NCBI GenBank assembly: GCA_965203525.1
Contig: OZ241898.1
Span: 640,176-704,175 of the forward strand
Direction of reading: 5' to 3'
Length of the DNA stretch: 64,000 nucleotides
Origin: Vicinamibacterales bacterium
Lineage (GTDB): Bacteria; Acidobacteriota; Vicinamibacteria; Vicinamibacterales; UBA8438
A program made the translations under genes and the position numbers. Of this stretch, positions 9,908 through 52,533 are shown piece after piece. The stretch's first letter is position 1; each line of letters opens with the position of its first letter. The notes under the pieces are model-generated. The model was not told the DNA's origin and did no database searches. It was given only the letters and a program-made list of their open reading frames with translations.

Positions 9908-10036
9908 GACCGGCCGGGGAATCGGGGCCGGGACGAGACCGTGGCGGGGGGCGTCGGCGGCTTGCAGCCGGGGCCGTCCGCGCAGTCGGCCGGGGAACCG
10001 GGCGCAGGAGGCACCCGGCGGCGTCCCCCCCGGCGG

Positions 10037-10834
10037 TCATTCGGGGCGCTCGCCCCGTCTGTCGCGGAGGACCCGCGCGGGAACCCCGGCCGCGACGGCG
10101 AACGGCGGGATTTCGTCGCGCACGACGGCGCCGGCCCCGACGATCGCGTCCCGTCCGACGGTCACCCCGTCGGCGACGACCACGTGCGCGCCGAGCCAGA
10201 CGTTGTCGTCGACCTCGATCCCGCGGGCGATCCGCTCCTGGTAGAGCACCGGCGCGTCGGTCCGGTCGTACGCATGATCTCCGCCGACCAGATAGGTGTA
10301 CGCGGCCACCAGCGTGTGCTTTCCGAGCCGGACGCGGCTGCCGGAGAAGATCTCGCAGTGGAAGCCGATGTTGGCGTGGTCGTCGACCACGATGTCCCCG
10401 TTCTTGCAGCTCAGGATCGTACCGCGGCCGATGAAGACGCCGCTGCCGATGTCGATGCCCCGGTTCCCGTCGCCCTTGGCGTCGAGACAGCAGGCGTCGT
10501 CGATCACGACGTCGTCGCCGATACGGATCTTGTGGGGATGCCGGAGCACCACGTTGGCCCCGAACGTGACGTTGCGGCCGGTGCGGCCGAGCAGCCGCGG
10601 ATAGAGCTTCGACCGCAGCCAGAAACCGAGCGCGCCGGGCAGGGCGCTGCACAGGGTCACGACGAGCTCGTACCGGATCAGCGCCCGCAGCCCGGGCCGG
10701 CCGACCACGAGCTGCGCATAGCGCGCGGCCCTGGACCGGCCGGGGGCGAACAGCTCCTCCTGGATGACCGTGATCCTGCGTCGATCGTGCGAGGCGCCGC
10801 CGGGCGCGTCCGGCGGCGGCGTCGAAGCGGACAA
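10037..10834 (-). CDS. Hexapeptide-repeat (left-handed beta-helix) acyltransferase
   Basis: Repeated [LIV]G-x4 hexapeptides (IRIGDDVVIDDACCLD, IDIGSGVFIGRGTILS, VVDDHANIGFHCEIFS, VDDNVWLGAHVVVADGVTVGRDAIVGAGAVV). The TTG start at 10832-10834 follows AGGAGGAG. An alternative ATG at 10978 would add a low-complexity N-terminus. Confidence 0.8.
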   Translation of the reverse strand: MSASTPPPDAPGGASHDRRRITVIQEELFAPGRSRAARYAQLVVGRPGLRALIRYELVVTLCSALPGALGFWLRSKLYPRLLGRTGRNVTFGANVVLRHPHKIRIGDDVVIDDACCLDAKGDGNRGIDIGSGVFIGRGTILSCKNGDIVVDDHANIGFHCEIFSGSRVRLGKHTLVAAYTYLVGGDHAYDRTDAPVLYQERIARGIEVDDNVWLGAHVVVADGVTVGRDAIVGAGAVVRDEIPPFAVAAGVPARVLRDRRGERPE

Positions 10835-11141
10835 GGAGCTCCTCCTGCGTCCCGGCGGCGCGCCCGTACCGCCGCCCGGGTCGGTTCGTGCCCGGCGCCC
10901 CCTCCCGCCGCGAGTGCGGGACGATCCGGGCGCCGGGCGGGCGCGGAATCCGAACCTGACGGCTGAACCGTAGCACATGCGCCGGGCGCTCGTTCCGGCG
11001 TGGGGTATGATTCGGCGGCAAAACGTAGCCGCTTCCGTGCGGCGTCGGGACGCTCCGTCCGAGTCCCGGCCGCCGCGCGCACTTGCGGGTGAGTTCCCCG
11101 CGGCGTTCCACGCCGCCGCCGTGTCGGATACTGGAGGCTCC

Positions 11142-11981
11142 TTGCGAACGAAGTCCGGATTCGGGTTCCCGCCGGTGGCGGGATCATCGTCGATTCTCGT
11201 CGCGCTGATGCTCCTCGGCGGTCCCGCGGAAGCGCAGACCGCCGGGGAGAGGCAGGCGTCGGCGCGTTCCGGATCGAGGCTGATGCGGATCGGGTACCTC
11301 AACCTCAACGCGATGTATCCGAGCCGGGAGCATGCGGTGAGCCAGAGCCGGTCGATGGCGCTGTACGACGAAACGGCCGACTTCGACGTCCGCCACGCCG
11401 TATCGCGCCGCGTGCCGCTGGATGCCTCCGTGGGGTTCCGCGTGTGGAGCAACCTGTCCGTCGGCGTCGGCGCCACGTACCTCCGCACCAGGCACGGCGT
11501 CGACGTGACGGGGACCGTTCCGCATCCGCTCTTCTACGATCGCCCGCGGGACGTGCGGCAGCAACCGAGCGGATTCCGGCGCACCGAGATCGCCGCCCAT
11601 CTGCAGGCCGGCTGGACGATCCCCCTGGCCGGTCGTCTCGACCTCGCGTTGTCGGCCGGGCCGTCGCTCCTGCTCGTGAAGCACGACAGCGTGTCCGCGA
11701 TCGCCGTACGGGAAGTCGGAGCCCCCTACGACCAGGCGCGGACCGAGGTCACGCGCGCCGCCGTGCGGGAGCGCGTGCCCGGCGCCAACGTCGGAGTCGA
11801 TCTGACGTATCACTTCATCGCCCGCCGGAATCCCGGAACGGTGTTCTGGACCGCCGGCATCGGGATCTTCGCGCGGTGGACCACGGGAACGGCGACGCTG
11901 CCCGAACCGGCGTTCGACCCCGATCAGACCATCGAGGCCGGCGGCCTGCAAGCCGGCGCCGGGTTGCGCTTCCGGTTCTGA
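11142..11981 (+). CDS. Putative outer-membrane beta-barrel protein
   Basis: TTG at 11142 follows GGAGG. Signal peptide SSSILVALMLLGGPAEAQ, alternating beta-strand pattern, and a C-terminal GLRFRF (aromatic terminal residue typical of OMPs). No family recognised. Confidence 0.6.
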   Translation: MRTKSGFGFPPVAGSSSILVALMLLGGPAEAQTAGERQASARSGSRLMRIGYLNLNAMYPSREHAVSQSRSMALYDETADFDVRHAVSRRVPLDASVGFRVWSNLSVGVGATYLRTRHGVDVTGTVPHPLFYDRPRDVRQQPSGFRRTEIAAHLQAGWTIPLAGRLDLALSAGPSLLLVKHDSVSAIAVREVGAPYDQARTEVTRAAVRERVPGANVGVDLTYHFIARRNPGTVFWTAGIGIFARWTTGTATLPEPAFDPDQTIEAGGLQAGAGLRFRF

Positions 11982-12100
11982 GCACGGCAGGGAGGGCCGA
12001 GCGAAGAGACGTGCGCTGACCCCGGTCGCCCCATGGTCTGCCAGAGCACGCTCGGACCCCGGCTCGCCCGCAATCGCCGTCCGTCCGGCGCCGGACCGGG

Positions 12101-12553
12101 ATGATGCGGGCGGTCGTGCAGCGGGTCCGGCGCGCCTCGGTGACCGTCGACGACCAGGTCGTCGGCGCCATCGGTTCCGGTCTGCTGGTGCTGCTCGGCG
12201 TCGGCCGCGACGACGCGGAGGGCGACGCCGCGTACGTCGCCGGCAAGATCCACGGTCTCCGCCTGTTCGCGGACGCGGAAGGCAGGATGAACCGCTCGGT
12301 GGCCGAGGTGGGCGGCGCGGTGCTCGTGGTCTCGCAGTTCACCCTGTTCGGCGACTGCCGGCGCGGCCGGCGGCCGTCCTACGGCGCGGCGGCGCCCCCC
12401 GACCGCGCCCGGGCGCTGTACGAAGCGCTGGTGGCGAGGCTGCGGTCGGCCGGCCTGCCGGTGCGGACCGGCGAGTTCCAGGCCATGATGGACGTCGAGC
12501 TGGTCAACGACGGTCCGGTCACCGTGCTCCTCGACAGCGGACGCGCCTTCTGA
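12101..12553 (+). CDS. dtd: D-aminoacyl-tRNA deacylase
   Basis: 150 aa: MRAVVQRV...[11 protein letters not shown]...GRRPSY...[10 protein letters not shown]. This is the canonical Dtd sequence. Confidence 0.95.
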
Positions 12554-12614
12554 GCGAACGTGTTCGCCGCCGGGTTCCCCCGGGGGCGGCGGGCCGGGAG
12601 GCTAGAATCACCGG

Positions 12615-13469
12615 ATGCGTCTCACACCGACGACCCGGGCGGGCGTGGTGCTCGCCCTTCTCATCTGGCCGGCCTCCCTCGCCGCCCAGCAACGTCCGCT
12701 GGTGACCGAAGATCCGGAGTCCGTCGGCAGCGGCCTCGTGCTGCTGGAAGCGGGGTTCGACTACCAGCGCGATCAGCATTTTCCGGTGTCGGGCCTGACC
12801 GGCCACCTCCGCAGCCTGCCTCGGTTCGGCGTCAGCATCGGCGTGAGCTCGATCGCCGAGGTGCAGATCGACAACGTGTCCTACGACACCCTGCGCATCA
12901 CGGGCAGAAGGACCGCGCCGCTGTCCGGGCTTCTGCGCGTCAGCGGCGACGACACGTCGAGCTGGTCCGACACGGTGATCGGCGCCAAGACGCGCCTGGT
13001 GTCCGAAGGCGGAGTCCGTCCCGGCGTCGCGCTCCGGTTCGCCACCAAGCTGCCCAACGCGGGCAACGAGGAGGGCATCGGGCTCGACACGATGGACTTC
13101 TACAACTCGCTGCTGATCGGCAAGACGGTCCGGTCGCTGCGCGTGGTGGGGAACGTCGGATTCGGGATTCTGAGCGATCCCACCCGCGGGGACCGCCAGA
13201 ACGACGTGCTGACCTACGGGCTCTCGTTCGCCCGTGCGTTCGCGGAAGGCGCGGAGATCGTCGGCGAGGTGAACGGCCGCACCAACACGCGGCGCGGGAC
13301 GGCTCCCCCGGGGACCGACGATTCCTCCTACGCCCGTTTCGGCGCCCGCTTCACGCGGGGGCTGGTCAGACTGGACGCCGCCCTCGTGGCCGGCTTCGGC
13401 CCCCACGACGCCGGGTTCGGCGTGACGACCGGGCTGACCTGGGTCTTCCGCGCACTGGATCTGCCGTGA
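12615..13469 (+). CDS. Putative outer-membrane beta-barrel transporter (MetA-pathway/phenol-degradation-like family, tentative)
   Basis: Signal peptide VVLALLIWPASLAAQQ followed by amphipathic strands. The family assignment is from memory only. Confidence 0.55.
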   Translation: MRLTPTTRAGVVLALLIWPASLAAQQRPLVTEDPESVGSGLVLLEAGFDYQRDQHFPVSGLTGHLRSLPRFGVSIGVSSIAEVQIDNVSYDTLRITGRRTAPLSGLLRVSGDDTSSWSDTVIGAKTRLVSEGGVRPGVALRFATKLPNAGNEEGIGLDTMDFYNSLLIGKTVRSLRVVGNVGFGILSDPTRGDRQNDVLTYGLSFARAFAEGAEIVGEVNGRTNTRRGTAPPGTDDSSYARFGARFTRGLVRLDAALVAGFGPHDAGFGVTTGLTWVFRALDLP

Positions 13470-14305
13470 ACGGGCGGCCGCGCGGCGCGCCGGTCGAATT
13501 CGTCAAGGCGCACGCCTACGGCAACGACTTCCTGTTCGCCGGGCAGGAAGAGGTGGGCGGAGCGCCGCCCGCCGACCTGGCGCGGGCCATCTGCCGGCGC
13601 CGGCACGGGGTCGGGGCGGACGGCCTGATCGTCTACCGGCGCACCCCGGCCGGCGCGGCGATGCGGCTCTTCAACGCCGACGGCAGCGCCGCCGAGGTGT
13701 CCGGCAACGGAGTGCGCTGTCTGGGGGCGCTGCTGGTCGAGACCGCTTCCGGGCAAACTCCGCGCGCCGCCGTCCGCCCCCTCGAGATCGAGACGGCGGG
13801 CGGCCTGAAGACCCTGACGCTGCGGGACGCCGAGCCCCCGCGCTACACCTTCCGGGCCGGCATGGGGCGGCCACTGGGGTTGCGCGAGGAAGAGCTGGAC
13901 GCCGGCGGAGAGCGGCTGCGGATCGTCGTGCTGTCCGTCGGCAACCCGCAGTGCGTCGTCCTGTCGCCGTCCGTGGACGAAGCGGAGCGGCGGTTCCGGC
14001 GTTTCGGACGGCTTCTGGCGACGCACCGGCGGTTTCCGGAGGGGACCAACGTGGAGTTCGCGGCCGTCGAGCGCCCGGACCGGATTCGGATCCTGATCTG
14101 GGAGCGGGGCGTCGGGCCGACCCCCGCCTCGGGCACGGGGGCGTGCGCAGCCGCGGTCGCGGCCGCCCGCTACGGCGGGGCGGCGCGCAGCGCGGAGGTG
14201 GTGTCGCCGGGCGGCGCGCAGCACGTCGACTGGACGGACGATCAGATCCAGCTCACCGGCTGGGCCGAGATCGTCGCGCGGGGACGCTGGGTCCCGCCGC
14301 CGTAG
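13466..14305 (+). CDS. dapF: Diaminopimelate epimerase
   Basis: The GTG at 13466 overlaps the upstream stop (GTGA). FVKAHAYGNDFLF, both catalytic Cys motifs (SGNGVRC and SGTGACA), and VEFAAV. Confidence 0.92.
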   Translation: MNGRPRGAPVEFVKAHAYGNDFLFAGQEEVGGAPPADLARAICRRRHGVGADGLIVYRRTPAGAAMRLFNADGSAAEVSGNGVRCLGALLVETASGQTPRAAVRPLEIETAGGLKTLTLRDAEPPRYTFRAGMGRPLGLREEELDAGGERLRIVVLSVGNPQCVVLSPSVDEAERRFRRFGRLLATHRRFPEGTNVEFAAVERPDRIRILIWERGVGPTPASGTGACAAAVAAARYGGAARSAEVVSPGGAQHVDWTDDQIQLTGWAEIVARGRWVPPP

Positions 14306-23220: not shown

Positions 23221-24573
23221 TCAGCCCGTCCAGCGCAGCCGGACCACATCTTCGCGCAGGTGCCGTCGGCTGGCCGTCGCGATCCGCGTCCTGAACAAGT
23301 CGATGGCCGTCAGTTCGTAGCCAAGGGACCGGGCCAGATCGCCCAGGATCCGCCCGGTCCGGATCATGACCCGCAGGTACGACGCCTGGTCTCCGACGAC
23401 GTACGCAAGTCTCGCGCCGGGCCGCAGTCTGCTCCGGAGGCCGGCCAGATGGCGCACCATGCCGCCGAAGTACAGTTTCGTGACTCGCGCGTACTGGCGT
23501 TCGAAACCCGACGTCCTGCCCTGTTCGATCCGACGCTTTTCGATGAGGCGCGCGATGCGCTGAATGCCCTCGTGTTCGGCGACCAGGGCGTCGTCGGCGT
23601 CCGTCTTGTACACGCCTCGCGTATTGGATCGGACGAGTTCCTGTTTCAGGCCTCGCAGCTCCCGCTTGTCCCGGACGAAGCCGAGCAGCACGCTTTCGAG
23701 CCGCGTCGTCCGCGTGTAGTCCTTTTCGTTGGGATACGGCGGGGAGGTAATGACCGCGTCGATGGACGACGGCTCCAGGATCTCCTCCAACCTGCGCGCG
23801 TCGGCAAGGTGGACGGCGGCTTCGGTCCCGGCCTGTTTCCGCAGATTCGCGAGGTCGTTGCCCATCGTTCTGACGCGGTTCAACCACGGGCCGACGACCG
23901 GCGCGTCTTCCCGAATTCGCCCGACACCGACCTCCGGGCCGAAATGCAGGTTGCCGATTCCTGAAACCAGCGCCGCGGCGAGCGCGAGTCGCTCGTGAGC
24001 GTACACCGTGTCGTCGCGGTGCCGCTCCAGGGCGTCGAGCAGGAGCAGCGTCTTGTGGAGCGGCAGCGGGCTGATCGAGTTCTTCAGCAGAAGGCTCAAA
24101 CGGTCGGGTGGCAACGTCCGCAACTCCGCGGTTGGAGACTCGTCCGCCTGGAACAGAGGCGCCGGTCCGCGGTCGCCGAGTCCCTGATCCTGGAGCCGAT
24201 CGAGCGCGAGGCCGGCGATCCGCCTGGCGTGGGAAACAAGCGCGTCGGAATCGACGTTCCAGTTCAGCTTGGTGCGGCTCGCGAAGCCGGCCACCGGATT
24301 GCGCTCGATTCCGACGCTCGGAATGCCGAGCTTCTTGCACTCGACCAGCGTCGTTCCCGTACCGCAGAACGGATCCAGCACCCTCTGCGTCGAATCGACG
24401 CGGAACTCTTCGAGGTAGTCGCGCACCAGATGCGACGGGAATGACAGAACGAAGCGGTACCAGTCGTGAACGGCCCGATCTTCGGGCCTGAGCCGGTTCC
24501 GTTCCGGAGTGCTTCCGGCGCCGGCCGTCGTATTGCCCTGGATGAATTCCAGGTACTTGCGCTGCGCTTCCAT
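23221..24573 (-). CDS. Site-specific DNA methyltransferase (N6-adenine or N4-cytosine), alpha-type motif order, with no adjacent endonuclease
   Basis: 450 aa. Motif I VLDPFCGTGTTLVE lies near aa 66. Motif IV AVITSPPYPNEKDY lies near aa 262, with about 190 aa between them. The region is lower in GC (about 62% on a sampled line). Confidence 0.85.
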   Translation of the reverse strand: MEAQRKYLEFIQGNTTAGAGSTPERNRLRPEDRAVHDWYRFVLSFPSHLVRDYLEEFRVDSTQRVLDPFCGTGTTLVECKKLGIPSVGIERNPVAGFASRTKLNWNVDSDALVSHARRIAGLALDRLQDQGLGDRGPAPLFQADESPTAELRTLPPDRLSLLLKNSISPLPLHKTLLLLDALERHRDDTVYAHERLALAAALVSGIGNLHFGPEVGVGRIREDAPVVGPWLNRVRTMGNDLANLRKQAGTEAAVHLADARRLEEILEPSSIDAVITSPPYPNEKDYTRTTRLESVLLGFVRDKRELRGLKQELVRSNTRGVYKTDADDALVAEHEGIQRIARLIEKRRIEQGRTSGFERQYARVTKLYFGGMVRHLAGLRSRLRPGARLAYVVGDQASYLRVMIRTGRILGDLARSLGYELTAIDLFRTRIATASRRHLREDVVRLRWTG

Positions 24574-32706: not shown

Positions 32707-34521
32707 ATGACTTCATGCAACGGTGTGCGTGCGCGGTTGTCGGCGGCGGCCGTGGCGTTGGCGGCGGTCGCGGCAGGCGTGGTCCCGACGGCCGCCGCGC
32801 AGGGGCGGACCACCCGGCAGGGCGAGCCGCCGAACGTCACGGCGGGCGGGACCGACTGGACGAGCCACAACCTCGACCTCGCCAACAGCCGCTACTCGGA
32901 GCTGGACGAGATACGCGTCGAGACGGTCGGACGACTGGCCGAGCGGTGGTCCTACCGGGTGGCGGCGGGGATCGACGTCAGCCAGGTGACGCCGCTGGTG
33001 GTCGACGGCGTGATGTACTTCCACGCCGGCGCCGCCGTGGTCGCCGTCAACGCGGTCACCGGCGAGGAGGTCTGGACCCTCGAGCTGGACGAGGCGCGCC
33101 GCAACCGCGTCCGCGGGCCGACCTGGGCGGAAGGGAAGATCTACTCCTACAACGGTCCGAACCTGGTCGCGGCCGACGCGAAGACCGGCGAGCTGGTCGC
33201 GTCGTACGGCGACGGCGGCGTCCTGCCGGTGGTCGGGCTGGCGCTGCAGGCCAAGTATCCCGACACCTATCCGCCGACCCTCGACCCGCACACCCTCGGC
33301 TACCGGATCACCGCCGCGCCGGCCTACCACGACGGCACGCTCTACGTCGGCGCCGCGCTCTCCGAAGGGCACATTCCGGGCGGTCTGGTGATCGCCACCG
33401 ACGCCGAAACCGGGGCCGTCGAGTGGGTGTTCAACACCATCCCGCAACGCCCGCGGGACGACGGCTGGGAGATCGCGCGCGACACGTGGGGCGACGGCCA
33501 GCGCGCCGGCGGCGGCGTCTGGACGCAGCCGGCCATCGACCTCGACCTCGGCCTGATCTACTTCAACACCGGCAACCCGTCGCCGGACTACGACGGATCG
33601 GCGCGGCCGGGGGCCAACCTGTTCACCAACGCCACCGTCGCCCTCGACCTGGAGACCGGCGCGCTGCGCTGGTACTACCAGGCGATCCACCACGACCTGT
33701 GGGACTGGGACCACGTCACCGGCCCGGTGCTCTTCGACGTCGCGGGCGCCGACGGCGAAACGATCCGGGGCGTCGGCGCGGCCGGCAAGAACTGCCTGCT
33801 CTACCTCTGGAACCGGGAGACCGGCGAGCCGATCAACCCGATGGTGGAGACGCCGGTGCCGACCGCGACCAACGTGCCGGGCGAGGTGGTCTATCCGACC
33901 CAGCCGATCCCCTACAACGCCCGCGGCGTGCCGATGACGCCGTTCTGCGCGACGTACGTGCACCTCGACGACCCGGAGCTGCAGGCGCGGAGCCGGCCGA
34001 TGTACACGCCGTACTCCGTCGAGGAGCACCTGATCGTCGCCCACGGCGGATCGAGCTTCGGCTCGCCCGCGTTCAGCCCGCGCACCGGGCTGCTCTACGT
34101 CACCGGCAAGAACGCCGCGGTCTCGATGATCGTCCGGCCGCTCGGCGACAGCCTGGAGCCGGGGCCGCACGGCGACGGCCACAGCGCCAACTTCGAGGAG
34201 CTGAGCCGCATCCCCGCCTACACGCCGACCACCACCCTGACCGCCTACGAGCCGGCCAGCGGGGAAGAGGCGTGGCAGCAGGTGTTCCCCGCGCTCGGTC
34301 CCATCGGCGCGAGCGGCAATCTGGCGACGGCGGGCGACCTCGTGTTCCAGGGCGCGGACGACGGCGCGTTCTACGCGTTCCACGCCGCGACCGGCGAGCG
34401 GCTGTTCCGCCACCAGGCGCCGCGCCCCATCCGGTCGAGCCCGATGACCTACCGGGTGAACGGCAGGCAGTACGTCACGGTGATCGCGACCGACACGATC
34501 CTGACCTTCGCGCTGCCGTAG
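32707..34521 (+). CDS. PQQ-dependent dehydrogenase (quinoprotein beta-propeller)
   Basis: Signal peptide, WTSHNLDLANSRYS, TPLVVDGVMYF, GGGVWTQPAIDLDLGLIYFNTGNPSPD, HHDLWDWD, and C-terminal SSPMTYRVNGRQYV. Confidence 0.88.
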   Translation: MTSCNGVRARLSAAAVALAAVAAGVVPTAAAQGRTTRQGEPPNVTAGGTDWTSHNLDLANSRYSELDEIRVETVGRLAERWSYRVAAGIDVSQVTPLVVDGVMYFHAGAAVVAVNAVTGEEVWTLELDEARRNRVRGPTWAEGKIYSYNGPNLVAADAKTGELVASYGDGGVLPVVGLALQAKYPDTYPPTLDPHTLGYRITAAPAYHDGTLYVGAALSEGHIPGGLVIATDAETGAVEWVFNTIPQRPRDDGWEIARDTWGDGQRAGGGVWTQPAIDLDLGLIYFNTGNPSPDYDGSARPGANLFTNATVALDLETGALRWYYQAIHHDLWDWDHVTGPVLFDVAGADGETIRGVGAAGKNCLLYLWNRETGEPINPMVETPVPTATNVPGEVVYPTQPIPYNARGVPMTPFCATYVHLDDPELQARSRPMYTPYSVEEHLIVAHGGSSFGSPAFSPRTGLLYVTGKNAAVSMIVRPLGDSLEPGPHGDGHSANFEELSRIPAYTPTTTLTAYEPASGEEAWQQVFPALGPIGASGNLATAGDLVFQGADDGAFYAFHAATGERLFRHQAPRPIRSSPMTYRVNGRQYVTVIATDTILTFALP

Positions 34522-34732
34522 GGGTCGGGACGGCGGCGTCCGGCGAGCGGCCGATACTCGTATACTGGAGAGCATGGACGGGCTGGGAGCACCAAGCTCG
34601 ACGCTCTTCCGAGCCGCTGTGCATGGCCCCACGCCGACGACCGGACGCGCCAGCGCACGCCGCGAGCTACGACCCGTTGCGCCGTCCGCCGGTCGCGGGT
34701 TGCCCCGGGGGCATCGATGAGGACATGAACGC

Positions 34733-35434
34733 ATGAAGGTCCTTCGGGTTCGTCATCACGACTCGGAGATCCACGTCAGCTTCAGGCTGAACCGGTTCAT
34801 CACCGACTGGCCGTCGGCGCAGTCGAGGTTCATCGGCGGCATCGCCGACGGGTTTCGTGGATGGGTCCCGATCGCCCCGCGGAACTTCAGCGTGACTCCG
34901 GCCTTTGCACTGGAAGACCTGCGGTGCAAGTGCCGGCTCTTCGGCGGCCAGTGCGAGATCGTTCTGGCGCCCGAGGTACTGCAGCTCGATTTCGAGAACG
35001 TGAAACGGGAAGCTCGGCCCGTCGTTCTGGAAACGGTTCGAAGAGCGTCGGAATGGCTGGCCGGCGCTCTGGGAGACCACGGCCGGGACCTGTTGTCGTT
35101 CTGGACGTTTGCGCACCTGGAGGCGTTGGAAGCGGACGCCGCGGATGCGTACCTCGGCCAGTTCATGCCGGCGGAAGCCGATGACTTGATGCGATCCGAA
35201 CCGGACGTGAAGTACCTGCCGTCCAGCCGCACCCTGTTGTCGAGAGAAGCGGAAGGGTGGTTGTTGGAGCGGGTGATCGAAAAATCGCTGTCGATCGACA
35301 ACGCCGTGTTCGTGGACACGCGGGTTCGCGTGCAGTCGCCAGATCCCGCGAGATTCGACGATCAGATGCGGCTGCTTGACCGCGTCGAGAAGCTGGCGGA
35401 TCGCGCGGTCGGACTCGATTGCGAGGAGGCGTGA
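34733..35434 (+). CDS. Hypothetical protein, first gene of the low-GC three-gene cassette
   Basis: 233-aa ORF with balanced composition in a locally low-GC region (55-62%). The antisense ORF is junk. Its stop lies 1 nt before the next start. No family recognised. Confidence 0.65.
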   Translation: MKVLRVRHHDSEIHVSFRLNRFITDWPSAQSRFIGGIADGFRGWVPIAPRNFSVTPAFALEDLRCKCRLFGGQCEIVLAPEVLQLDFENVKREARPVVLETVRRASEWLAGALGDHGRDLLSFWTFAHLEALEADAADAYLGQFMPAEADDLMRSEPDVKYLPSSRTLLSREAEGWLLERVIEKSLSIDNAVFVDTRVRVQSPDPARFDDQMRLLDRVEKLADRAVGLDCEEA

Positions 35435-35435
35435 A

Positions 35436-36146
35436 ATGACGTCAATCGGGAACATCTCCGCACGCGATTTCCAGAGTCGTCCGCGGATTTCGTCGGAAGA
35501 CGTTGCGCGGTTTCTGGCGGGTGGCGCCGCATACAAAACGCTGGGCGCCGAACCACGTATCCGGGCGCCCTGGAGCGATCCGAATGCGGAAATGGATCCG
35601 CTCGTCGTCCAGACACCGGCGCGGAGACTCTTGGGGGCATTCGGGAGGGCTACGAACGCGCCGTCTTCGGGTGGACCGAGCACGGACGATGCGTACCGGC
35701 AGTTCCACGTACCGGAGCCAGGCTGGCTCGCGGACGCCCTGGCGGCGCTGGCGGAGGTCGACGACGAAATCGCGGAGGAAGAACTTCCGCAAGTCAGCGA
35801 CGCCACGAAGGCGGAGGCGGAGAGAATCATCAGGGCTCTGGAGGGGCGCTCGCCGGCGCCGACCGTCTACCCTACGCAGGACGCCGAAATCGCCCTGCAT
35901 TTCAAGGCGCCCGGCCGGACGGGCACCGTCGTCATCCTGTTGAGCGACGGCGTGCGGGCGGACTGCCATGCGTACGTCGGTGGCACGAGCCGGCGCGCCC
36001 ACTATGACACTTCCTCGGACCTCCCTGATGCATTCGTCCTGGATCAACTGCGCCGCCTGACGCCGCCGAGCCGGGCCGCCGTTTCGATGCCGGACGCGAG
36101 CTTCTCCCTGTTCCGAACGATGTTCCTGCCGACGATCTGCCCTTGA
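35436..36146 (+). CDS. Hypothetical protein, second gene of the cassette
   Basis: ATG at 35436 is preceded by GAGGAGG (35423-35429) at 6-nt spacing. 236 aa: a probably disordered N-terminal half and a compact C-terminal alpha/beta-looking domain (AEAERIIRALEGRSPAPTVYPTQDAEIALHFKAPGRTGTVVILL). No family recognised. Confidence 0.65.
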   Translation: MTSIGNISARDFQSRPRISSEDVARFLAGGAAYKTLGAEPRIRAPWSDPNAEMDPLVVQTPARRLLGAFGRATNAPSSGGPSTDDAYRQFHVPEPGWLADALAALAEVDDEIAEEELPQVSDATKAEAERIIRALEGRSPAPTVYPTQDAEIALHFKAPGRTGTVVILLSDGVRADCHAYVGGTSRRAHYDTSSDLPDAFVLDQLRRLTPPSRAAVSMPDASFSLFRTMFLPTICP

Positions 36147-36150
36147 AGTC

Positions 36151-36606
36151 GTGAACACGAGGTCGAGATCGGTGCAGGCGCCACCGGCGGAGCTGGATAA
36201 GAACGAGGATCTGGGCCGATCCGTATTCTCGCGACGGAGGCGCGACCGTGCGCGCAAGGGCAACGTCGACTTGGACGTTTTTCTGGAACGCGAACAGGCC
36301 GAGTCGATCTCGGTCGACCGGATGGACCATGCGACAGTTGCTGAACTGGCCGAGTGGTCCCGCGAGCGGGGGCGCAGCCGTGAGCCTCCCCGGCAATTCC
36401 ACGGGTGGGCCGTCCTGAAGGTCCTGGACGCCGCGGCGAACGGGAGAGCCGTCAGAGCGACTCCGACGCCGCAGAACCGGTGTCACGCGGACATCTTTCT
36501 GAACGTCACCGGGGAGGAGAGAAGGCGCCGGCAGAGGGATCACGCCGCTGAACTGGCGGACAAGTCCCGGTGGGTGGAGGTTCCCGCAGGTTCGGACCCC
36601 GGATGA
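36151..36606 (+). CDS. Hypothetical basic protein, third gene of the cassette
   Basis: GTG lies 4 nt after the upstream stop. 151 aa with a basic N-terminus (SRRRRDRARK) and a conserved-looking FHGWAVLKVLDAAANGRAVRATPTPQNRCHADIFL block. No clear SD, so the start is uncertain. Confidence 0.5.
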   Translation: MNTRSRSVQAPPAELDKNEDLGRSVFSRRRRDRARKGNVDLDVFLEREQAESISVDRMDHATVAELAEWSRERGRSREPPRQFHGWAVLKVLDAAANGRAVRATPTPQNRCHADIFLNVTGEERRRRQRDHAAELADKSRWVEVPAGSDPG

Positions 36607-36629
36607 AGGACCGCCGGCCCGCGCCGCCG

Positions 36630-37307
36630 TCACGCCAGATGCCGCCGGTAGAAGGCGAGCATCCGCGTCCAGCACTCGGCGGCGTACCGCGCGTGGTACG
36701 TCTCCGCGCGGGTGTCGTTGAAGAAGGCGTGGTCGGCGCCGTCGAAGATGGTGATCTCGACCTCCTTGCCCGCGGCCTGCAGGTCGGCCTCCAGCCGGCG
36801 CGCCGCGTCCGGGGTGACGAAGGCGTCCTTCTCGGCGAAGAAGCCGAGCACCGGCGCCTGCAGGTTCGCGAGATCGGGGGTGACGGCGGGGTGGATGCCG
36901 TAGAAGTCGACGCACGCGCCGACCTTCGGGTTGGCGCAGGCGGCGAAGAGCGCAAGCTGGCCGCCCATGCAGAACCCGACGGCGCCGACCCGGTCGCCGG
37001 CGACCTCGCCGCAGGCCAACAAGTAATCGACGGCGCCCCGCAGGTCCCGTTCCGTCCGCCCGACGTCGAGCGCCATCATCAGCTTGCCGGCATCGTCGGG
37101 GCTCGCGGCGGTCTCGCCGTGGTACATGTCGGGCGCGAGGGCGGCGAAGCCTTCGCCCGCGAACCGGTCGGCGACGTCCTTGACGTGATCGACCAGCCCC
37201 CACCACTCCTGGATCACGATCACGCCCGGCCCCCTGCCGGAGGCCGGCGTCGCCAGGTAGCCGCGGGAGCTCCTGCCGTTGGTTGCGAACTCGACCATCC
37301 TGCCCAT
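36630..37307 (-). CDS. Dienelactone hydrolase family protein
   Basis: GVIVIQEWWGL, the nucleophile elbow VGFCMGG, and DHAFFND. ATG at 37307 is chosen over the track start at 37364. Confidence 0.9.
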   Translation of the reverse strand: MGRMVEFATNGRSSRGYLATPASGRGPGVIVIQEWWGLVDHVKDVADRFAGEGFAALAPDMYHGETAASPDDAGKLMMALDVGRTERDLRGAVDYLLACGEVAGDRVGAVGFCMGGQLALFAACANPKVGACVDFYGIHPAVTPDLANLQAPVLGFFAEKDAFVTPDAARRLEADLQAAGKEVEITIFDGADHAFFNDTRAETYHARYAAECWTRMLAFYRRHLA

Positions 37308-37323
37308 CGTTTCCCGTTCCTTT

Positions 37324-37510
37324 CGCGGGTCCGGCGCCGCCCGCGTCTCGGCTGCTTCACGCAAACGTCGTGAAACGGTGCGGCTCCTCTCGCGGAGCCG
37401 GCGCCGCCTGTTTCATGCGAACGTCGAGAACGGCGCGGGCCGCCGTTCCGCGCGGGTCCGGCGTCGCCGGCGCCGCCGGCTCACTCCGCGACGGCCGTCA
37501 CGGCGCGCGC
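37324..37510 (+). repeat. Three decayed tandem copies (periods about 56-69 bp) between the SGNH/LamG gene stop and the dienelactone hydrolase start
   Basis: cgcgg[ga][tg]ccggcg[ct]cgcc occurs at 37324, 37391 and 37450. The motifs ttcacgcaaacgtcgtgaaacggtgcgg, ttcatgcgaacgtcgagaacggcgcgg and tcactccgcgacggccgtcacggcgcgcg follow. On the minus strand the third copy is the real gene end (AVTAVAE-stop), and copy 2 keeps a stop at the equivalent position. Confidence 0.7.
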
Positions 37511-50748: not shown

Positions 50749-52533
50749 ATGACAGACGCACCAGACGACGCGGCGCGGCTGGCGGCCGCCGGCGCCGCGG
50801 AGGCTCTCCCGGCGGCGCCGAAACCTCCCGAGCCGGCGCGGTTCGCGGACCCGGACGAGGAGACGGTCGATCCGGAGGAGCACGCCCGCCTCGTCGCCCT
50901 GTACGAGGGCAGCCTGAAGAACATCGCCGAGGGGGAGGTCATCAAGGGCACCGTGCTCAAGGTGTCCGATTCCGCGGTGATCGTCGACGTCGGCTACAAG
51001 TCGGAGGGCCTGATCTCGCTGTCGGAGTTCTACGACGAGAACGGCGAGCCGATGGTGCAGCCGGGCGACACGGTCGACGTGCTGCTCGAGCGGACCGAGG
51101 ACCGCGACGGCCACATCGTGCTCTCGCGCGAGAAGGCCGAGAAGATGAAGATATGGGACGAGGTCGAGAAGGCCTACGCGGATCGCAAGGTCGTCATCGG
51201 GCGGGTGATCGAGCGCATCAAGGGCGGCCTCGCCGTCGACATCGGCGTGCGCGCGTTCCTGCCCGGCTCGCAGATCGACGTCCGTCCCGTGCGGAACCTC
51301 GATTCGCTGCGCGGCCAGGAGCTGCGCATGCGCGTCATCAAGGTGAACAAGAAGCGGGGCAACATCGTGTTGTCGCGCAAGGTCCTCGTCGAAGAGGAGA
51401 ACGCGGAAAAGAAGAAGGAGACGCTCGCGACCCTCGCCGAGGGCAAGGTCATGCAGGGGGTGGTGAAGAACATCACCGACTACGGCGCCTTCATCGACCT
51501 CGGCGGCATCGACGGGTTGCTGCACGTCACCGACATGTCGTGGGGCCGGGCGCAGCACCCCTCCGAGATCTTCAGCGTGAACGACGAGGTGGAGGTCATC
51601 GTCCTGAAGTTCGACCCCGCGACCGAGCGCGTCTCGCTCGGCTACAAGCAGCTCCACGCCGACCCGTGGACCTCGGTGGCGGAACGGTACCCGGTCGGGC
51701 AGCGCCTGCCGGGCAAGGTGGTCAGCCTGACCGACTACGGCGCCTTCGTCGAGCTCGAGCCCGGCGTCGAGGGGCTGATCCACGTCTCCGAGATGTCGTG
51801 GAGCAAGCGCGTGAAGCACCCGTCGAAGCTGCTCAACGTGGGCGACATGGTGGAGTCGATGATCCTCGGCGTCGATCCGCACGCGCGCCGCATCGCGCTC
51901 GGGTTGAAGCAGATCGAAAGCAACCCGTGGCAGCGGCTCGGCGAGAAGTACCCGGTCGGTTCGAAGATCACCGGCACCGTCCGCAACCTGACCGAGTTCG
52001 GCGCGTTCGTCGAGGTCGAGGAGGGCATCGACGGCCTGATCCACATCTCGGACATGTCCTGGAGCAAGCGGCTGAAGCACCCCTCCGACGTCATCCGGAA
52101 GGGCGAAGAGGTCGAGGCGATGGTGCTCAACATCGACCCCGAGAACCAGCGGCTCTCGCTCGGCCTGAAGCAGCTCGCGACCGACATCTGGGACGACTTC
52201 TTCGCCACGACCAAGGTCGGCGACGTCGTCGAGGGCAAGGTGGTGCGGATCACCAGCTTCGGTGCGTTCGTCGAGCTGGCCGAGGGGATCGAAGGGTTGA
52301 TCCACGTCTCCGAGTTCGAGGATCAGGGGCGGGGCGACAAGGCGGAGCTGACGGTCGACGAAACGATCCAGATGCGCGTCATCAAGCTGAGCCCGGCCGA
52401 GCGGAAGATCGGGCTCAGCGTGCGCGCGCTGAGCAGCGAGAACTTCGAGGTCGACTGGCGCAGCTACACCAGCGGCGAATCGCCCGAGGTGACGCTCGGG
52501 GACCACTTCAAGCAGCAGACGTCGTCGGACTAG
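50749..52533 (+). CDS. rpsA: 30S ribosomal protein S1
   Basis: 594 aa with six S1 repeats (GEVIKGTVLKV..., VIGRVIERIKGGLAVDIG, VMQGVVKNITDYGAFIDLGG...). A strong SD (GGGAGGAAGGAAAGG) lies upstream. Confidence 0.95.
   Translation: MTDAPDDAARLAAAGAAEALPAAPKPPEPARFADPDEETVDPEEHARLVALYEGSLKNIAEGEVIKGTVLKVSDSAVIVDVGYKSEGLISLSEFYDENGEPMVQPGDTVDVLLERTEDRDGHIVLSREKAEKMKIWDEVEKAYADRKVVIGRVIERIKGGLAVDIGVRAFLPGSQIDVRPVRNLDSLRGQELRMRVIKVNKKRGNIVLSRKVLVEEENAEKKKETLATLAEGKVMQGVVKNITDYGAFIDLGGIDGLLHVTDMSWGRAQHPSEIFSVNDEVEVIVLKFDPATERVSLGYKQLHADPWTSVAERYPVGQRLPGKVVSLTDYGAFVELEPGVEGLIHVSEMSWSKRVKHPSKLLNVGDMVESMILGVDPHARRIALGLKQIESNPWQRLGEKYPVGSKITGTVRNLTEFGAFVEVEEGIDGLIHISDMSWSKRLKHPSDVIRKGEEVEAMVLNIDPENQRLSLGLKQLATDIWDDFFATTKVGDVVEGKVVRITSFGAFVELAEGIEGLIHVSEFEDQGRGDKAELTVDETIQMRVIKLSPAERKIGLSVRALSSENFEVDWRSYTSGESPEVTLGDHFKQQTSSD

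Follow-up and report, generated by a model that had tools for sequence, protein, structure and literature searches.

What kind of system is encoded by three small genes that stand between a pyrroloquinoline quinone (PQQ) dehydrogenase and a dienelactone hydrolase in an acidobacterial genome and match no recognisable family? The genes, called A, B and C here, lie in a 64,000-nucleotide stretch of a Vicinamibacterales bacterium (GenBank assembly GCA_965203525.1, contig OZ241898.1, positions 640,176 to 704,175), which as a whole is referred to as the window and whose own numbering is used for all coordinates of this copy. An initial annotation, made from the sequence alone, had taken them for one horizontally acquired operon and guessed at a toxin-antitoxin (TA), immunity or defence function. 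Our analysis points to a genuine, previously undescribed candidate system that would be of a familiar kind (TA or defence) and made of new parts, namely three unannotated families. On balance, we think that the cassette probably represents a horizontally mobile, autonomous TA-type module, with C as the toxin, B as the antitoxin and A as an accessory protein. The features needed first are the following:

34733-35434, plus strand: gene A, 233 amino acids (open reading frame list; start and stop read in the sequence)
35436-36146, plus strand: gene B, 236 amino acids, from the ATG at 35436 to the TGA at 36144-36146 (open reading frame list; sequence)
36151-36606, plus strand: gene C, 151 amino acids, with a GTG start at 36151 (open reading frame list; sequence)
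34719-34723, plus strand: GAGGA resembling a Shine-Dalgarno sequence, 9 nt upstream of the start codon (ATG) of A and inside the shared segment (read from the sequence)
35423-35429, plus strand: Shine-Dalgarno sequence GAGGAGG of B, within the end of A (read from the sequence)
34716-36617, strand not assigned: transferable segment, the DNA common to the cassettes of other genomes (blastn alignment ends)

The three open reading frames (ORFs) lie on the same strand exactly as first described, and so do their junctions: a single nucleotide separates the TGA of A (35432-35434) from the ATG of B, and 4 nt separate the TGA of B from the GTG of C. The Shine-Dalgarno sequence of B inside the end of A indicates translational coupling. 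This internal site and the tight gaps favour the single operon that had been proposed, and junctions are equally tight elsewhere, with a gap of 0 nt between A and B and an overlap of 4 nt between B and C at L001 (homologous loci are numbered in this way), and overlaps of 1 nt and 4 nt at L021. Homologous proteins begin at positions that bear out the GTG as the start codon of C and the ATG as that of B, and the GTG-AAC start of C is kept across the whole clade of window-type cassettes. An antisense ORF of 387 amino acids, set aside earlier as junk-like, does exist and has a non-coding pattern of codon-position GC; because its GC at third codon positions (GC3) is 0.70 and it spans the conserved A/B junction, we do not regard it as a gene.

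That all three genes are real and under purifying selection is indicated by their close homologues (110 for A at 46% identity or more, 207 for B and 106 for C, with E values up to 1e-150) and by pairwise ratios of nonsynonymous to synonymous divergence (dN/dS) of 0.29-0.56 for A, the core of B and C, with 0.31-0.45 for A. These homologues, about 100-200 for each protein, are nearly all unnamed proteins from metagenome assemblies. No family in Pfam, NCBIfam or PHROGs matches A, B or C, and profile searches of PDB sequences with the three proteins returned nothing significant, which agrees with the first impression of unrecognisable proteins and leaves no ordinary metabolic or structural family to which any of them could be assigned. 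Nor is a transmembrane segment predicted, since the Kyte-Doolittle maximum over 19 residues is at most 1.0 in all three. In the literature, terms for antitoxins, defence and proteins resembling the TATA-box-binding protein (TBP) led only to papers on RnlA and HEPN proteins, and the cassette was not described there.

Do the three genes belong together? A scan of species representatives, one genome per species, yielded 14 loci, hosted by Vicinamibacterales, Binatia, Gamma- and Alphaproteobacteria, Bryobacterales (two copies in one genome) and Marinacidobacterales, and all 14 keep the order A-B-C, one of them with a degraded C. The co-occurrence of the genes thus extends over five bacterial classes or phyla, and the same order recurs in L001, L020-L023 and L057-58.

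The distribution is patchy, and the composition and divergence of the cassette likewise point to acquisition from outside. GC content is 63.2% in A, 66.5% in B, 66.4% in C and 65.2% over the whole cassette, the lowest value among 622 sliding windows of 1874 nt (mean 73.1%, standard deviation 2.5), and GC3 is 78-80%, compared with 94-97% in the genes for the PQQ dehydrogenase, the dienelactone hydrolase and a DUF1552 protein. The deviation in GC and codon use is therefore clear, although the 55-62% first estimated from single lines overstated the dip by about 5 points. Both flanking genes are what they had been taken for (Pfam E 7e-100 for the PQQ dehydrogenase and E 3e-56 for the convergent dienelactone hydrolase), and at 16 of 17 other host loci the cassette is again lower in GC than its flanks. 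When positions 33500-37500 were compared by blastn with all fetched loci, the cassette showed 78-86% DNA identity to those of other genomes, belonging to Vicinamibacterales, Binatia, Gamma- and Alphaproteobacteria. The alignments begin at 34715-34733 and end at 36584-36617 with no flank common to the loci, so that homology extends at most 18 nt upstream of A and at most 11 nt downstream of C. Synonymous divergence (dS) between the window copy and the Gamma- and Alphaproteobacterial copies is only 0.34-0.42, a value that argues for recent transfer and is incompatible with vertical descent. Taken together, the deviant GC and GC3, the low dS, the sharp homology limits and the patchy spread uphold the horizontal acquisition proposed at first, and indicate that the cassette moves between phyla as a 1.9-kb unit. 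At its ends, no flanking repeat pair, tRNA, integrase signal or promoter-like site was found, and two terminator-like matches on the minus strand were discarded as the number expected by chance.

Two other low-GC patches occur in the window. One, at 65-67% GC, contains a minus-strand ORF of 450 amino acids (23221-24573) with DPFCGTGTT and SPPY motifs, which by eye we take to be an N6/N4 DNA methyltransferase and which may be a further acquired gene, either of a restriction-modification system or of an orphan methylase. The other, at 51-52.5 kb, holds a plus-strand gene (50749-52533) for a protein of 594 amino acids with repeated S1 motifs, by eye presumably ribosomal protein S1, and not every GC dip here therefore marks acquired DNA.

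Within the cassette, B and C can be separated from A, and B itself divides into three parts. The relevant positions are:

35436-35693, plus strand: residues 1-86 of B, a variable N-terminal extension with 44% Pro/Gly/Ser/Ala (alignment A3, nonsynonymous divergence)
35694-36065, plus strand: residues 87-210 of B, a conserved acidic core (isoelectric point, pI, 4.75) and putative antitoxin domain (alignment, hhalign, PADLOC)
36066-36146, plus strand: Phe-containing C-terminal tail of B (residues 211-236, with the stop codon), found in the window-type clade only (alignments A3 and A7)
36217-36219, 36310-36312 and 36484-36486, plus strand: invariant codons of C, for R23, S54 and H112, respectively (alignments A1 and A5)

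The core of B has 35 invariant columns in alignment A3 and a median pI of 4.9 across the family, whereas the extension is poorly conserved in the same alignment, appears to be absent from two-gene relatives and has a nonsynonymous divergence of 0.39-0.62 compared with 0.07-0.20 in the core. A distant relative of C (P0099) in a cytochrome oxidase (cox) operon (L025) is preceded, with a 4-nt overlap, by a gene for 137 amino acids that matches the B alignment A3 with an hhalign probability of 98.9 (E 1.7e-17). Similarly, among 26 metagenome loci fetched with the distant C profile, a B core stands directly upstream of C at 24 according to hidden Markov model (HMM) searches and at one more by eye (L046), i.e., at 25 of 26, and the remaining locus (L045) has only a truncated C. 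These loci indicate that the B core and C form the ancestral and widespread unit.

The pair has the gene arrangement of type II TA systems, being small, adjacent, co-directional, coupled and kept across genomes, and the acidic B core is matched by a basic C (pI 9.95 in the window, family median 8.4). In wide alignments, C shows enzyme-like conservation, while few residues of B are invariant. We infer that C is a small basic alpha/beta enzyme and putative toxic effector, and that B would be its cognate neutraliser by means of an acidic core of 115-125 amino acids. Decay has been caught in C at several loci: at L006 it is cut down to the last ~40 codons in two tandem copies in which B is intact, at L045 it is truncated, and at L051 it is frameshifted. 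The L006 locus (10001-14008, from a Vicinamibacterales metagenome-assembled genome, MAG) is a partial tandem duplication with two copies of B, each followed by the ~40 codons of C. At L020, an orphan B-core gene (1985-2497; 145-171 amino acids) occurs without C and adjoins a PemK pair and a UDG gene, and the same locus holds a complete A-B-C cassette besides.

What might C do? Its family comprises 825 clusters at 50% identity with E≤1e-3 in the full HMM search (494 at E≤1e-10), all of them stand-alone proteins of about 135-185 amino acids (typically ~140). Across this wide family (alignment A5), R23, S54 and H112 are invariant; the near-invariant residues are G22, F44, D56, R57, G85, W86, R99, P105 and N109, and most members have Asp or Glu at position 114. 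In the 27 close relatives, G85, W86, A87, N109, H112 and D114 are all invariant, and the FHGWAV...NRCHADIFL block that had looked conserved by eye is accordingly the conserved core, with these six residues in it. The AlphaFold2 model is confident (pLDDT 90.4, pTM 0.83) and has the order beta-alpha-beta-alpha-beta-beta-beta-alpha-beta, with six strands. By contrast, the earlier suggestion that RRRRQRDH fits an Rx4-6H pattern failed, because the Arg is not conserved (the corresponding stretch in P0099 is EDQDEQKGH) and an alpha/beta fold is predicted, not an all-alpha one. We rejected a HEPN toxin on the same grounds, together with the conservation of H131 at only ~90%.

A different comparison concerns the R-S-E ADP-ribosyltransferases (ARTs), in which an Arg on beta1, a Ser on beta2 and a catalytic acidic residue at the start of beta5 are placed in the ART split-sheet fold. 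In the model of C, R23, S54 and H112-x-D/E114 are on strands 1, 2 and 5 as in these enzymes. However, no ART was among the Foldseek matches of C in the PDB, and no ART family was found in the Pfam and PDB profile searches, and with the residue pattern fitting and fold and profile support absent, an NAD+-using ART is a second guess only. C would most likely attack a phosphate-bearing substrate, for which RNA would be the first guess and NAD+ with ADP-ribosylation the second.

The role of A is approached through its predicted fold and through the loci at which it is replaced. The AlphaFold2 model (pLDDT 91.7) is a pseudo-dimer, formed by a duplicated beta-alpha-beta4-alpha unit. Foldseek relates it to TATA-box-binding proteins (E 3e-5, probability 1.0) and also to AdoMetDC and YwmB, with TM-scores of ~0.3 only; A may therefore be said to have the topology of TBP without being a close relative. 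The protein is acidic (pI 5.15 in the window; family median 5.1 with a net charge of about -10), which disfavours a DNA-binding role by analogy with TBP. A possible Zn or Cys site at C65, C67 and C74 was dropped, as these residues are not conserved in A proteins of the L036 type.

Members of the A family are the first gene at some distant loci (L036, E 5e-61; L034, E 2e-12; L049, E 3e-32 via L034), and other proteins take this place elsewhere. The first gene of L041 (4048-4356) encodes a protein of the DUF3467 family (Pfam E 6e-9), and L028 has an ORF of 141 amino acids with weak similarity to it (325-750), both in the position of A and before an N-terminally extended B. This context suggests that DUF3467 may serve as an antitoxin partner; in the literature on DUF3467 and PDC-M32, no functional data were found. 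At L027, the first gene encodes a protein of 239 amino acids, in which homology to A was not detected; L028, L039 and L046 have small ORFs of 84-141 amino acids, and L025, L026 and L029 have no first gene. Judging from these loci, the first gene is optional and exchangeable. Its presence appears to go with the extension of B, which is 51-138 amino acids long where a first gene of at least 100 amino acids is coupled to it and 10-18 amino acids long in three clear two-gene loci, a link that comes from about ten lineages and includes several ambiguous start codons of B.

In addition, A occurs with other partners. At L003-5, a gene for 249 amino acids, in which homology to B was not detected, comes after an A homologue (51% identity) and before an uncalled ORF with an RNKADYH motif (9390-9830 in L003, present also in L004 and L005), whose best sequence matches in the PDB are, weakly, HEPN-domain proteins (9xbd_A, E 0.02). 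A thus appears to be combined with different toxin-like partners. At L054 (8001-8912) and L055, the first ~56 codons of an A homologue continue in frame into an ADP-ribosylglycohydrolase gene (P0216). Since L057/58 carry an intact cassette in the same PSD/DUF1552/ankyrin context, we read this fusion as a deletion scar, and a functional link to the glycohydrolase through P0216 was discarded as that of a decayed cassette beside an unrelated gene.

The fold of A and its association with a HEPN-like ORF at L003-5 could also be read in another way, in which A and C would be a joint effector inhibited by B, with A as a nucleic-acid-binding subunit in trans and C (or the HEPN protein in L003-type loci) as the nuclease. 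A precedent is RnlA, where the TBP-like domains TBP1 and TBP2, needed for RNA binding, serve an RNase toxin (PMC8266594, PMC3710099), and this lends support to A as the substrate-binding subunit of the effector. We nevertheless regard this arrangement as unlikely. The strong acidity of A is a poor fit for nucleic-acid binding, most relatives of C have no A-like gene, A can be replaced by the unrelated DUF3467 protein, RnlA is outside the top 50 fold matches of A, and the presence of A tracks the extension of B and no feature of C.

The anti-phage TA systems RnlAB/LsoAB (RNase LS) are comparable to the cassette in that each combines a TBP-like module with a toxin, putative in our case, at a mobile TA or defence locus, and the A homologue with a HEPN-like ORF at L003-5 echoes the TBP1-TBP2-HEPN architecture. 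However, the TBP-like domains of RnlA are fused to the HEPN RNase and its toxin gene comes first, whereas A stands alone as an acidic protein; C has an alpha/beta model and no Rx4-6H motif, and a HEPN-like third ORF is confined to the L003-5 variant. No sequence match of the cassette proteins to the RnlA or RnlB chains in the PDB was found.

A closer analogue of the proposed TA-type module is the design of toxin-antitoxin-chaperone (TAC) systems, whose chaperone recognises an antitoxin extension and serves as a phage sensor as well, with phage proteins competing for the chaperone (bioRxiv 10.1101/2024.02.24.581848). Like HigBAC and CmdTAC, the cassette has three genes, with a two-gene TA "warhead" and a third protein; the third gene appears to accompany a poorly conserved antitoxin extension, its partners are exchangeable, and phage defence is the role (TAC) or the context (here). 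In contrast, A has a TBP-like and not a SecB-like fold, the genes run in the order accessory-antitoxin-toxin, and C is neither HigB nor an identified ADP-ribosyltransferase. Because its third protein is not of the SecB kind and B is extended at its N-terminus instead of its C-terminus, the cassette is not a member of the TAC family, and TAC would be the closest analogue in mechanism only.

We propose the following model. C would be a toxic effector enzyme, in which Asp56, Arg57, Arg99 and Asn109 join Arg23, Ser54 and His112. B, made just before C from the same message, would neutralise C by direct binding through its acidic core. A, as an acidic TBP-like pseudo-dimer, would work through the N-terminal extension of B, which it may stabilise or monitor, in the way that a TAC chaperone holds the addiction element of its antitoxin; as a less likely role, A might be a substrate-binding subunit of the toxin, like TBP1/TBP2 of RnlA. 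If B were lost, titrated or degraded, C would be freed and the cell would be arrested; this might be triggered when a phage infects, when the cassette is lost or when a surrounding defence operon fails.

Such a surrounding operon exists for several copies. In L001, L008, L022 and L023, the cassette is placed co-directionally inside an operon that resembles the methylation-associated defence system (MADS), an 8-gene operon in which MAD6-8 are mandatory (bioRxiv 10.1101/2023.03.30.534895). The order is N6-methyltransferase, small ORFs, A-B-C, a protein of 471 amino acids (p471), a NERD-kinase, MAD7 and a protein of ~2000 amino acids. At L009/L021, L020, L010 and L011, the cassette is accompanied by remnants, namely the s72 region and the first 122 amino acids of p471. 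Behind the methyltransferase gene, the same slot is also occupied by a PemK-type pair, or by what is left of one, and it therefore appears to be a hot spot at which small modules insert. As an observation on the operons themselves, they carry HsdR_N/N6_Mtase and NERD-Ser/Thr kinase genes, extend over 5290-16702 in L001, and come from uncultured Gammaproteobacteria and other MAGs (L001, L008, L022, L023).

Are A, B and C then accessory parts of a MADS-like defence, for regulation or backup, and the window copy an orphaned fragment rather than an autonomous TA unit? The fixed place and orientation between the methyltransferase and p471, NERD-kinase and MAD7 within a clade of 72-86% identity, and the s72 and p471 remnants that travel with the cassette, would fit such a role, and embedded backup effectors are known, e.g., PrrC in EcoprrI (bioRxiv 10.1101/2024.01.29.577857). 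However, we consider it very improbable, as tblastn found no match in the window to the methyltransferase, p471, NERD-kinase or MAD7 of L001, or to s72, and the homology of the window to other cassettes ends at the three genes. Other copies are in unrelated contexts, the B-C pair also occurs alone, as in the cox operon, and the described 8-gene MADS has nothing that corresponds to A, B or C. With a PQQ dehydrogenase and a dienelactone hydrolase as neighbours, and no match to the MADS-like kinase, MAD7 or methyltransferase, the window locus differs from MADS, which is defined by MAD6-8 (kinase, MAD7 and MAD8) and a methyltransferase in one operon.

The surroundings differ elsewhere. Some copies stand near a PARIS-like pair of AAA_15 and DUF4435 genes, MmeI and cas1/2/4, and others near PIN and Mrr, near PemK and insertion sequence (IS) elements, near MazE, near HsdS, or near large helicases and IS elements. 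A last connection leads to PDC-M32, one of the PDC systems, candidates found by "guilt by embedding" (bioRxiv 10.1101/2024.01.29.577857). The PADLOC profile PDC-M32A matches the B of the window with E 1e-4 over profile positions 262-345 of 375, and B cores in general match its C-terminal third (~110 positions) with E 4e-6 to 3e-4; module kinds of both sorts are embedded in methylation-based defence operons. Against this likeness, the match covers less than one third of PDC-M32A, A has no match to the N-terminal part of that profile, and only one of 54 relatives of C touches PDC-M32B (E 0.012), the C of the window giving no match. By the models of PADLOC, the cassette is thus not PDC-M32. Together, the B-C architecture, the nesting in and next to defence operons and the weak PDC-M32 link are circumstantial support for the TA or defence function that had first been guessed.

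Beyond the arrangement of the pair, the cassette shares with type II TA systems small co-directional genes with near-overlapping junctions, as well as an acidic upstream protein and a neutral-to-basic, enzyme-like downstream protein. Like them, it is patchily distributed, is transferred horizontally, occurs in multiple copies and is found inserted in unrelated operons and in defence islands. Several results weigh against the TA-type module. Most type II antitoxins carry a DNA-binding domain, whereas neither Pfam nor NCBIfam detects one (HTH, RHH or AbrB) in B or in eight diverse B homologues, and an RHH-like N-terminus seen by eye in B of the L042 type was not confirmed by Pfam or PDB searches. 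C has no known toxin fold: Foldseek found no fold neighbour of its model in the PDB (best E 0.8) and a weak match only in BFVD (E 4e-3, TM-score 0.40), and profile searches of PDB, Pfam, PADLOC and PHROGs, made with both the narrower and the wider C family, ended in isolated single matches only. The PDC-M32 link of B is weak and partial. A is not SecB-like, with no Pfam match and no SecB in the Foldseek top 50, the extension of B is N-terminal while the ChAD addiction element of TAC antitoxins is C-terminal, and the association of extension and first gene has the narrow base given above. Finally, the window copy and L057/58 are among ordinary metabolic genes with no defence island, and the family is essentially absent from collections of phages, plasmids and viral contigs, where it was found on one viral contig only.

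An alternative would be a selfish or neutral mobile module that is not toxic, with an enzyme C and a regulator or partner B engaged in stress response, in nucleotide or cofactor modification or in anti-defence. No homology above threshold links the cassette to a known toxin, antitoxin or defence protein, some copies are among metabolic genes, and dN/dS of 0.3-0.5 is only moderate constraint. Still, we judge a non-toxic module to be improbable: the architecture, the transfer across phyla and the occurrence in several copies are typical of TA and defence modules, copies are embedded in defence operons and lie beside TA, restriction-modification and CRISPR genes, C decays while B is retained, and no metabolic neighbour is conserved.

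Returning to the TA-type module, a bolder version of it can be formulated. C would be a new toxin family of ~825 clusters, with a fold not in the PDB and a new Arg/Ser/His/acidic active site; A would be a new, non-SecB, TBP-like sensor or chaperone that holds the antitoxin and can be combined with different TA warheads, B-C in the cassette and a HEPN-like pair at L003-5; and the whole would be a three-part abortive-infection system not described before, which also nests in MADS-like operons. We put this forward tentatively, and as a combined claim it is rather doubtful.

If the TA-type reading is true, three unannotated families would be added to the repertoire of toxin-antitoxin and phage-defence systems, among them an effector with a confident model and no structural neighbour in the PDB. 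A may show that the TAC logic of an antitoxin plus its guardian has evolved again with a different fold, and the nesting in MADS-like operons would be a further case of defence genes embedded in defence systems, offering a concrete pair for the study of cooperation between them. Members of the family are found mainly in uncultured Acidobacteriota, Binatia and Proteobacteria, and since the family escapes the Pfam, NCBIfam, PHROGs and PADLOC profiles tried, such genomes would carry conflict systems that current surveys leave uncounted.

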